A stretch of DNA of 64,000 nt from an uncultured Candidatus Sumerlaeota bacterium (GCA_964389675.1 CAYMEV010000012.1:39329-103328); one strand, 5' to 3'; positions 7,191 to 8,477 are shown, numbered from the stretch's first letter. Program-made: numbers and translations. The notes: generated by a model from the letters alone, not told the origin.

Positions 7191-8477
7191 ATGAATGATA
7201 AATGGATAATACAGGAGTGCAGAAATAAACTCCATGGCACAATAAAGCCATCCGGAAACAAAAATGAAGCGCTTCCCGCAATCTGTGCAGCCCTGCTCTC
7301 CGAAGAGGAGGTTGTGCTGGAAAATGTTCCTGATATAACGGATGTCAGGGATATGCTTACAATTATAAGGAGTATAGGGGCTCAGGTCAGTTTTGAAAAC
7401 AATTCTGTCAGGATTATTCCCAGAGATGCCTATGACCTGTCAGATATGGACGCTGATGCTGCAAGGAGGATAAGGGCCTCATTCCTTCTTGCAGGAGTAC
7501 TGCTGACAAAGCATAGATCTGTTTTCCTCCCTTCCCCTGGCGGTGATTCAATTGGCTCCAGGCCCCTTAATGTGCATTTTGACCTCTTTGCGAAGCTGGG
7601 AATAATTACAGAGGAAAAATCTGACGGATACCTTATGGAATGGAAAAAACAATCAGGAATTGACCATCTCTTTCTTGATGAACCCAGCGTAATGGCTACG
7701 GAGAACATTCTTATGCTGTGCTCCAGGATAGAAAAAACAATAATTATTGAAAATACGGCAGCTGAGCCTCATATACAAGGCCTTTGCAGGATGCTCTGCG
7801 ATATGGGATGCATGATTGAAGGCATAGGTTCAAACCGGCTTATCATCACAGGCTGTTCAAAGCTTGTAGGTATCCGGCACAGAGTCTCCTGTGACCATAT
7901 AGAGATTGGATCCTTCATCAGCCTTGCCATAGCGCAAAAATGCAGTCTGAGGATAATGTATGATAAATATGAAAATATAAGGCCAATTTTGAATGTTTAT
8001 AAATGGCTCGGGGCGGGTCTGGATATAAAAGAGGGTATTATTGAGCTGAAAGAAAGGGAAGAATATGCCATAACCCCTCCAAAAGGTGTAGATATCCTGA
8101 AAGTAGCTGACGGGCCATGGCCTAATTTCCCATCTGACCTCATGAGTACGGTGATTGTTGCAGCAACTCAGTGCAGAGGAAGCATGCTGTTTTTTGAGAA
8201 GATGTTTGAAAGCAGGCTGTATTTTGTGGATGAACTGATCAGAATGGGGGCGAGGATCGTTCATTGTGATCCTCACAGGGTCATTACAATGGGCCCGTCG
8301 CCTCTGAGGGGAATACTCATGAGCTCGCCTGACATCAGGGCAGGCTATGCCCTCCTTATTGCGGCATTATGTGCAAAGGGTACAACTACACTTTCCAATA
8401 TAAAGACCGTCAACAGGGGATACGAGGATGTTCTCGGCAAGCTGAAAAGCATAGGGGCATGCATTGAAAGCCGGTAG
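7191..8477 (+). CDS. murA: UDP-N-acetylglucosamine 1-carboxyvinyltransferase (MurA), Asp variant at the catalytic Cys position
   Basis: Start moved to ATG 7191 (AAAGGTGA RBS 8 nt upstream) from the ORF-track 7146. KNEALPAICAALL matches the MurA N-terminal motif; loop PGGDSIGSRPLNVH aligns to E. coli PGGCAIGARPVDLH. Confidence 0.8.
   Translation: MNDKWIIQECRNKLHGTIKPSGNKNEALPAICAALLSEEEVVLENVPDITDVRDMLTIIRSIGAQVSFENNSVRIIPRDAYDLSDMDADAARRIRASFLLAGVLLTKHRSVFLPSPGGDSIGSRPLNVHFDLFAKLGIITEEKSDGYLMEWKKQSGIDHLFLDEPSVMATENILMLCSRIEKTIIIENTAAEPHIQGLCRMLCDMGCMIEGIGSNRLIITGCSKLVGIRHRVSCDHIEIGSFISLAIAQKCSLRIMYDKYENIRPILNVYKWLGAGLDIKEGIIELKEREEYAITPPKGVDILKVADGPWPNFPSDLMSTVIVAATQCRGSMLFFEKMFESRLYFVDELIRMGARIVHCDPHRVITMGPSPLRGILMSSPDIRAGYALLIAALCAKGTTTLSNIKTVNRGYEDVLGKLKSIGACIESR

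Follow-up and report, generated by a model that had tools for sequence, protein, structure and literature searches.

The murA gene and its active-site loop

The DNA analysed here is a stretch of 64,000 nucleotides from an uncultured Candidatus Sumerlaeota bacterium (GCA_964389675.1 CAYMEV010000012.1:39329-103328), referred to in the following as the window. A gene on its plus strand was assigned to murA, coding for a UDP-N-acetylglucosamine (UDP-GlcNAc) 1-carboxyvinyltransferase of 428 amino acids which carries Asp at the position of the catalytic Cys (Table 1). MurA transfers enolpyruvate from phosphoenolpyruvate (PEP) to UDP-GlcNAc, which is the first committed step of peptidoglycan synthesis. 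Cys115 of the E. coli enzyme acts as general acid and is alkylated by fosfomycin. The original prediction, made from the DNA sequence, had placed an Asp opposite this Cys and, indeed, bases 7545-7547 read GAT in frame and encode Asp119, which aligned with E. coli Cys115. With MurA of E. coli K-12 (b3189, taken from NC_000913) as reference, BLASTP gave a full-length alignment of 436 columns with 33% identity (E = 2e-63), which was ungapped around the loop and paired Gly-Gly-Asp of the query with E. coli G113-G114-C115. The Asp fell into the identical column in three independent MAFFT alignments, and the alignment with E. coli MurA that had been proposed as a check is, thus, reproducible with both programs.

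The active-site loop LPSPGGDSIGSRPLNVH corresponds to E. coli residues 109-125 and includes Arg124, the counterpart of E. coli R120. Its part PGGDSIGSR fits the pattern P-G-G-x-x-I-G-x-R, with Asp at the general-acid position 115. The alignment could have been misleading if a catalytic Cys were present elsewhere in the loop, but the 13 Cys residues of the 428-residue protein are located at positions 10, 32, 177, 199, 203, 207, 222, 234, 251, 328, 359, 394 and 424, and none of them is found in the loop (residues 113-129). One detail had to be corrected: the E. coli loop had been quoted with Ala at position 116, whereas the loop of the K-12 enzyme reads PGGCTIGARPVDLH and has Thr at this position.

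The only long open reading frame (ORF) over the Asp codon extends from 7146 to 8477 and comprises 443 amino acids, counted from the first ATG. The ATG at 7191 is almost certainly the real start, giving a protein of 428 residues in which the residue in question is most likely Asp119 (Asp134 if counted from the first ATG), since the protein of the closest relative (P0002, 73% identity) begins at the counterpart of position 7191, DNA conservation to a syntenic locus (L043) is lost upstream of the equivalent position, a putative ribosome-binding site (AAAGGTGA) is located seven bases 5' of this ATG and the ATG at 7146 lies within a promoter-like match. In this match, TTGATA-17 nt-TATAAT, 11 of 12 positions agree with the sigma-70 consensus, and the in-frame ATG at 7146 sits in its spacer, immediately 5' of the -10 hexamer. 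A start at 7146 was, therefore, rejected.

Table 1 Features of the window, in positions counted from its first letter
Feature	Position	Strand	Description	Basis
murA coding sequence	7191..8477	+	428 amino acids and TAG stop; UDP-N-acetylglucosamine 1-carboxyvinyltransferase	ORF, family models, E. coli alignment, AlphaFold2 model
Long ORF	7146..8477	+	443 amino acids from first ATG
Promoter-like match	7126..7154	+	Sigma-70-like	Best such match in the region; consensus match only
Ribosome-binding site and ATG	7176..7193	+	Likely true start at 7191-7193	Site seven bases 5' of ATG
Lys24 and Asn25 codons	7260..7265	+	E. coli K22 and N23; binding of PEP/fosfomycin phosphate and UDP-GlcNAc	Kept in query and nearly all representatives
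Active-site loop	7527..7577	+	E. coli residues 109-125	Alignments
Asp119 codon (GAT)	7545..7547	+	E. coli Cys115 position	In frame; alignments
Arg124 codon	7560-7562	+	E. coli R120	Alignments
Asp316 codon	8136..8138	+	E. coli D305, catalytic base	Conservation
Arg409 codon	8415..8417	+	E. coli R397	Conservation
Gene divergent from murA	6517-7029	-	170 amino acids, predicted outer-membrane beta-barrel	Weak family match
Rubredoxin ORF	8528-8797	-	89 amino acids from first ATG	Family match from residue 33
FtsH gene	8903-10717		Lineage marker
PPDK_N-domain ORF	14814-17828	+	1004 amino acids	Domain match
Transketolase genes	29715-31530	-	Two genes, 291 and 316 amino acids
PilT-family genes	34674-38217	-	Two adjoining ATPase genes
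TMEM43-like gene	38525-39700	+		Pfam match, 276 bits
Cmk-S1 gene	45974-48718	-	914 amino acids; lineage marker

Family models assigned the protein to MurA. The NCBIfam MurA model NF006873 scored 398.7 bits (cut-off 297) and TIGR01072 (murA) 392.7 bits, a value identical to its cut-off (392.7), and either match spans residues 24-441 of the long ORF. TIGR01356 (aroA) reached 44.9 bits, far under its cut-off of 287, and Pfam PF00275 (EPSP_synthase) 183 bits. In the PDB, strong matches by sequence were confined to MurA enzymes. The best of them was MurA of C. difficile, with the engineered C116D variant (6q0a, E = 4.9e-66) as top entry, and NikO and AroA were far weaker, NikO giving a partial match with E = 5e-23. 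An AlphaFold2 model calculated from 44 homologues had a mean predicted local distance difference test score (pLDDT) of 93.8 and a predicted template modelling score (pTM) of 0.93. When this model was compared with the PDB by Foldseek, ranks 1-43 were all MurA chains with template modelling (TM) scores of 0.87-0.91, the best solved MurA structures giving 0.90-0.91; then followed NikO with 0.86-0.87 at 20% identity and AroA with about 0.76. Furthermore, the query shares with the E. coli enzyme the residues K22, N23, R91, R120, D305, R331, D369, R371 and R397 (E. coli numbering), which take part in catalysis or in the binding of PEP or fosfomycin and of UDP-GlcNAc; for K22, R120 and R397, the roles are described in PMC4790336. 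Judged by sequence and by the predicted fold, the window protein is a MurA.

Asp and Cys among the relatives

Asp was present in all 120 best homologues from a search of 5.8 billion proteins. It was also present in all 43 related loci with coverage of this codon; these comprise 40 full-length matches from GTDB species genomes and three syntenic loci, and the Asp is encoded there by GAC (23) or GAT (20). These homologues form a subfamily with invariant residues unlike those of E. coli MurA: N21, E160, E167-N168, H190, Q192, D296 and W299 and, further, K326-M327, D336, a C-D-P-H-R motif, P368 and G373. Members were found in Gemmatimonadota, Thermoleophilum, Gaiellaceae, Solirubrobacteraceae, SAR324, Verrucomicrobiota, Kiritimatiellia, Victivallales and Lentisphaerota; the excess of the Planctomycetota-Verrucomicrobiota-Chlamydiota (PVC) group in the GTDB genome scan results in part from the exact peptide patterns used.

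The window apparently stems from a metagenome-assembled genome, and the Asp codon could be ascribed to an error of sequencing or assembly, or to a decaying pseudogene. A Cys codon (TGY) is converted to an Asp codon (GAY) by two base changes, through a Gly or a Tyr codon, and a single miscall can, therefore, not yield Asp. Since, in addition, the ORF is intact over 428 amino acids and relatives from independent assemblies (73%, 72% and 69% identity) have this Asp as well, as do all farther homologues examined, we regard such an error or decay as scarcely credible.

More weight could be given to the view that the subfamily consists of other enolpyruvyl transferases of the 5-enolpyruvylshikimate-3-phosphate (EPSP) superfamily, similar to NikO or AroA, that use another acceptor; the comparison with Cys115 would then be uninformative on fosfomycin. 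The subfamily is distinct, with invariants of its own (N21, E160, H190, W299, K326, C-D-P-H-R), none of its members has a solved structure, TIGR01072 is barely reached and the identity to characterised MurAs is about 31-38%. Yet the full-length MurA models scored 393-399 bits as against 45 for aroA, NikO matched the protein in part and, in the structural comparison, at low identity behind the MurA chains, every PEP- or UDP-GlcNAc-binding residue that was checked is conserved, and members of the subfamily are called MurA by NCBI and JGI and are the MurA matches in genomes of many phyla. Another transferase is, therefore, very improbable, and AroA, which the original prediction had named as the family to be feared, failed on the model scores as well as on the structural ranks 1-43.

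To obtain a wider sample, 1.84 billion cluster representatives (clustered at 50% identity) were searched exhaustively with HMMER, which gave 1,756 representatives with E <= 1e-30. Among the best 150 of the 1,756, a sample biased to relatives of the Asp-type query, Asp is present in 68 and Cys in 71, and in 11 the column is absent or occupied by another residue. A neighbour-joining tree was calculated from the 135 full-length representatives with Cys or Asp. Fitch parsimony required at least 23 changes between Cys and Asp, a number that is to be taken as an order of magnitude as the tree is rough; with shuffled labels on the same tree, the mean was 45 and the minimum 37 changes. The query falls among 28 Asp-type clusters that form one uninterrupted block. 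Cys and Asp states are interleaved in the tree, even among sequences with the subfamily signature. From these alignments, Asp is the conserved native state of the query lineage and not a sporadic change.

Most loops of the Asp block read GGDxIGRRRLDxH; the canonical Arg-Pro (IG[S/T]RP) is retained in the query and the three relatives closest to it. Arg at E. coli position 121 (IGRRR) was found in 16 of 64 Asp-type representatives versus 1 of 71 Cys-type representatives, and the clade of the window protein has the canonical Pro121. Ile at position 370 is likewise enriched among the Asp-type representatives. The association of Arg121 and Ile370 with Asp115 may be a compensatory pattern.

A broader reading, towards which we lean slightly, is that Asp is fixed in a large multi-phylum subfamily of MurA and that Cys and Asp have been swapped many times, with a minimum of about 20 swaps among the 135 representatives. 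The subfamily would span Gemmatimonadota, Thermoleophilia/Solirubrobacterales, SAR324 and many members of the PVC group (Verrucomicrobiota, Kiritimatiellia, Lentisphaerota) and would be marked by the invariant residues N21, E160, H190, W299 and K326 and the C-D-P-H-R motif. If this is true, insensitivity to fosfomycin at the target level is a widespread trait of environmental bacteria that have not been cultured, and may be a response to natural producers of phosphonates. A systematic survey of the distribution of Cys and Asp in MurA was not found in the open literature, which is no proof that none exists.

Five full-length MurA-like representatives of 420-426 amino acids (P0297, P0309, P0314, P0362 and P0388) are without the PGG[C/D]xIGxR loop and R120 but keep D305, R331, D369, R371 and the subfamily signature. 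R91 is absent in P0309, P0314, P0362 and P0388, but not in P0297. These five proteins may be non-catalytic or re-purposed paralogues of MurA.

Expected response to fosfomycin

Fosfomycin reacts with Cys115 of MurA to give a thioether (PMC4790336). The C115D variant of the E. coli enzyme retains full activity and is completely unaffected by fosfomycin, the C115E variant is inactive. MurAs with a natural Asp are described for M. tuberculosis, C. trachomatis and B. burgdorferi, which are intrinsically resistant; exchange of this Asp for Cys renders the enzymes of M. tuberculosis and B. burgdorferi sensitive, and chlamydial MurA in place of E. coli murA confers resistance (all PMC4790336). That the natural variant is active yet fosfomycin-proof, as had been claimed together with the Asp codon for mycobacteria, chlamydiae and Borrelia, is stated in this paper for the three species named. 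Further, a clinical E. faecium with Cys119Asp had a minimal inhibitory concentration of > 1,024 µg/mL and the drug was inactive in biochemical assays (PMC5652432). The window enzyme is predicted to be active and insensitive to fosfomycin because the carboxylate of Asp119 would take over the proton-transfer (general acid) role of the thiol, so that the enzyme works, and because, with no thiol to alkylate, a thioether with the epoxide of fosfomycin would not be formed and the drug could not inactivate the enzyme. In this case, intrinsic insensitivity of the bacterium to fosfomycin would be expected as far as the target is concerned.

The MurAs of M. tuberculosis, C. trachomatis and B. burgdorferi, compared here by their published description (PMC4790336), have the same Asp at the Cys115 position as the window protein, the active site of which is otherwise intact; the host lineage is a different one. 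The same residue change is present in the engineered C115D enzymes of E. coli and Enterobacter cloacae (PDB 3v4t, 4e7g) and in C116D MurA of C. difficile (PDB 6q0a), which is the best match to the window protein not only by sequence but also by structure (TM 0.90). These are, however, laboratory mutants of Cys-type enzymes with 31-38% identity to the window protein, in which the Asp is native and conserved. Cys119Asp of vancomycin-resistant E. faecium is again the same change, but a recent clinical mutation and not the ancient, lineage-wide state seen here. Compared to the Cys-type E. coli enzyme (b3189, PDB 1uae), the window protein has the same fold (TM 0.91) and the same catalytic residues except for position 115. 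Besides Cys115 to Asp, the exchanges are K160 to E, E190 to H and H299 to W, and the C-D-P-H-R motif, which is one residue longer, is found in place of E. coli residues 347-351.

Pairs of MurA1 and MurA2 are known from Gram-positive bacteria, and the window gene could be an accessory paralogue next to a canonical Cys-type copy elsewhere in the genome, in which case the Asp copy alone would not set the phenotype. The interleaving of both types within the subfamily indicates that either is open to such lineages, and the search for further copies covered 64 kb of the genome, from a source contig of 110,873 bp. However, tblastn with the query and with E. coli MurA revealed no second MurA or AroA homologue in the window, and one match per locus was found in 41 GTDB and 3 syntenic loci. 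Moreover, murA is located amid housekeeping genes in conserved synteny: the order ProRS, two Hsp20, murA, rubredoxin, FtsH and phosphofructokinase (PFK) is kept in the 73%-identical relative (syntenic loci L043 and L044, the latter from assembly GCA_964431655.1), and all catalytic residues are intact. Even next to a second copy, an expressed and active Asp enzyme would still be expected to give resistance, as does the chlamydial enzyme in E. coli (PMC4790336). We consider it improbable, although less so than the alternatives discussed above, that the gene is an accessory copy which leaves the phenotype to a Cys-type enzyme.

In sum, the MurA of this organism is very probably a natural Asp-type variant that is active and presents a fosfomycin-insensitive target. 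By analogy to the published work on other MurAs, which is the source for activity and insensitivity alike, the window enzyme would be almost certainly fosfomycin-proof. The gene may, in addition, be the sole or housekeeping murA, and resistance may extend to the whole cell. Several observations weigh against these conclusions. TIGR01072 is matched just at its cut-off, and the nearest solved or characterised enzymes are about 31-38% identical to the query. In the clade of the query, two positions of the substrate pocket are exchanged, E. coli D123 to N and G164 to M, unlike in most relatives; both are minority states, each found in 5 of 64 Asp-type representatives. With 64 kb searched, a second MurA of the Cys type may be present elsewhere in the genome, and the susceptibility of whole cells also depends on uptake of the drug.

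Asp-type MurA is long known and common in environmental bacteria, and the window gene is one more example. It adds a textbook case of target-site insensitivity to fosfomycin in an uncultured, rarely sequenced bacterium without clinical relevance. For genome annotation and for the prediction of resistomes from metagenomes, Asp at this position is best taken as a normal state of MurA and not as an anomaly to be flagged each time. No structure has been solved for the subfamily and, to the extent that could be established, it includes no verified characterised member, which makes one representative worth characterising. Mildly novel is the breadth of the Asp state and the frequency of the exchange between Asp and Cys across the diversity of MurA.

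Neighbouring genes and host lineage

On one side, murA is accompanied by a divergent gene for a predicted outer-membrane beta-barrel protein and by two Hsp20 genes; on the other side, genes encoding rubredoxin, FtsH, phosphofructokinase, a DHH-family protein and glutamate dehydrogenase are found. The idea that the host produces a phosphonate and protects itself, or that a fosfomycin gene is linked to murA, was considered and rejected, as nothing similar to PepM, FosA/B/X, GlpT or UhpT was found among the window ORFs scanned. The divergent gene encodes 170 amino acids with a signal-peptide-like N-terminus and a C-terminal Phe and has a weak match to outer-membrane beta-barrel proteins; the divergent arrangement is conserved in the relative. 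The rubredoxin ORF comprises 89 amino acids from its first ATG, but the family match begins at residue 33, and a length of 56 amino acids is annotated for the orthologue of the syntenic relative; the true start of the ORF is probably an internal ATG.

Three proteins of the window (MurA, FtsH and the cytidylate kinase-ribosomal protein S1 fusion Cmk-S1) were used as markers for the host lineage. Among 5.8 billion proteins, each had 3-5 relatives with at least 66% identity (66-85%). The next-best matches had 56-59% identity for FtsH (Syntrophorhabdaceae and Nitrospirota) 43-48% for MurA (several phyla, i.e. Gemmatimonadota, Thermoleophilia and PVC) and 30% for Cmk-S1 (Brachyspira), a sharp drop in all three cases, and the next-best named matches belonged to different phyla for each of the three markers. 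As far as these matches tell, the host lineage is very sparsely sampled. The G+C content of the window is 41%. Since chemotaxis proteins, PilT ATPases, rubredoxin and a 2-oxoacid:ferredoxin oxidoreductase are encoded in the window, its gene content suggests a motile diderm anaerobe as host.

Among the further genes of the window, that of the Cmk-S1 fusion encodes 914 amino acids; a protein of the same architecture is present in Brachyspira (799 amino acids, about 30% identity). Of the two adjoining genes for PilT-family ATPases, the upstream one encodes 827 amino acids with an N-terminal extension of about 460 amino acids that has no NCBIfam match. Transketolase is encoded by two slightly overlapping genes for an N-terminal part of 291 and a C-terminal part of 316 amino acids. 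An ORF of 1004 amino acids contains a PPDK_N domain (PEP-utilising, ATP-binding) and gave a weak match to a receiver domain; its N-terminal part overlaps an ORF of 231 amino acids without family match on the opposite strand, and its TTG start is probably placed too far upstream. Finally, TMEM43, a family named for a eukaryotic nuclear-envelope protein, is matched by a gene of the window, i.e. in a bacterial genome, with 276 bits.
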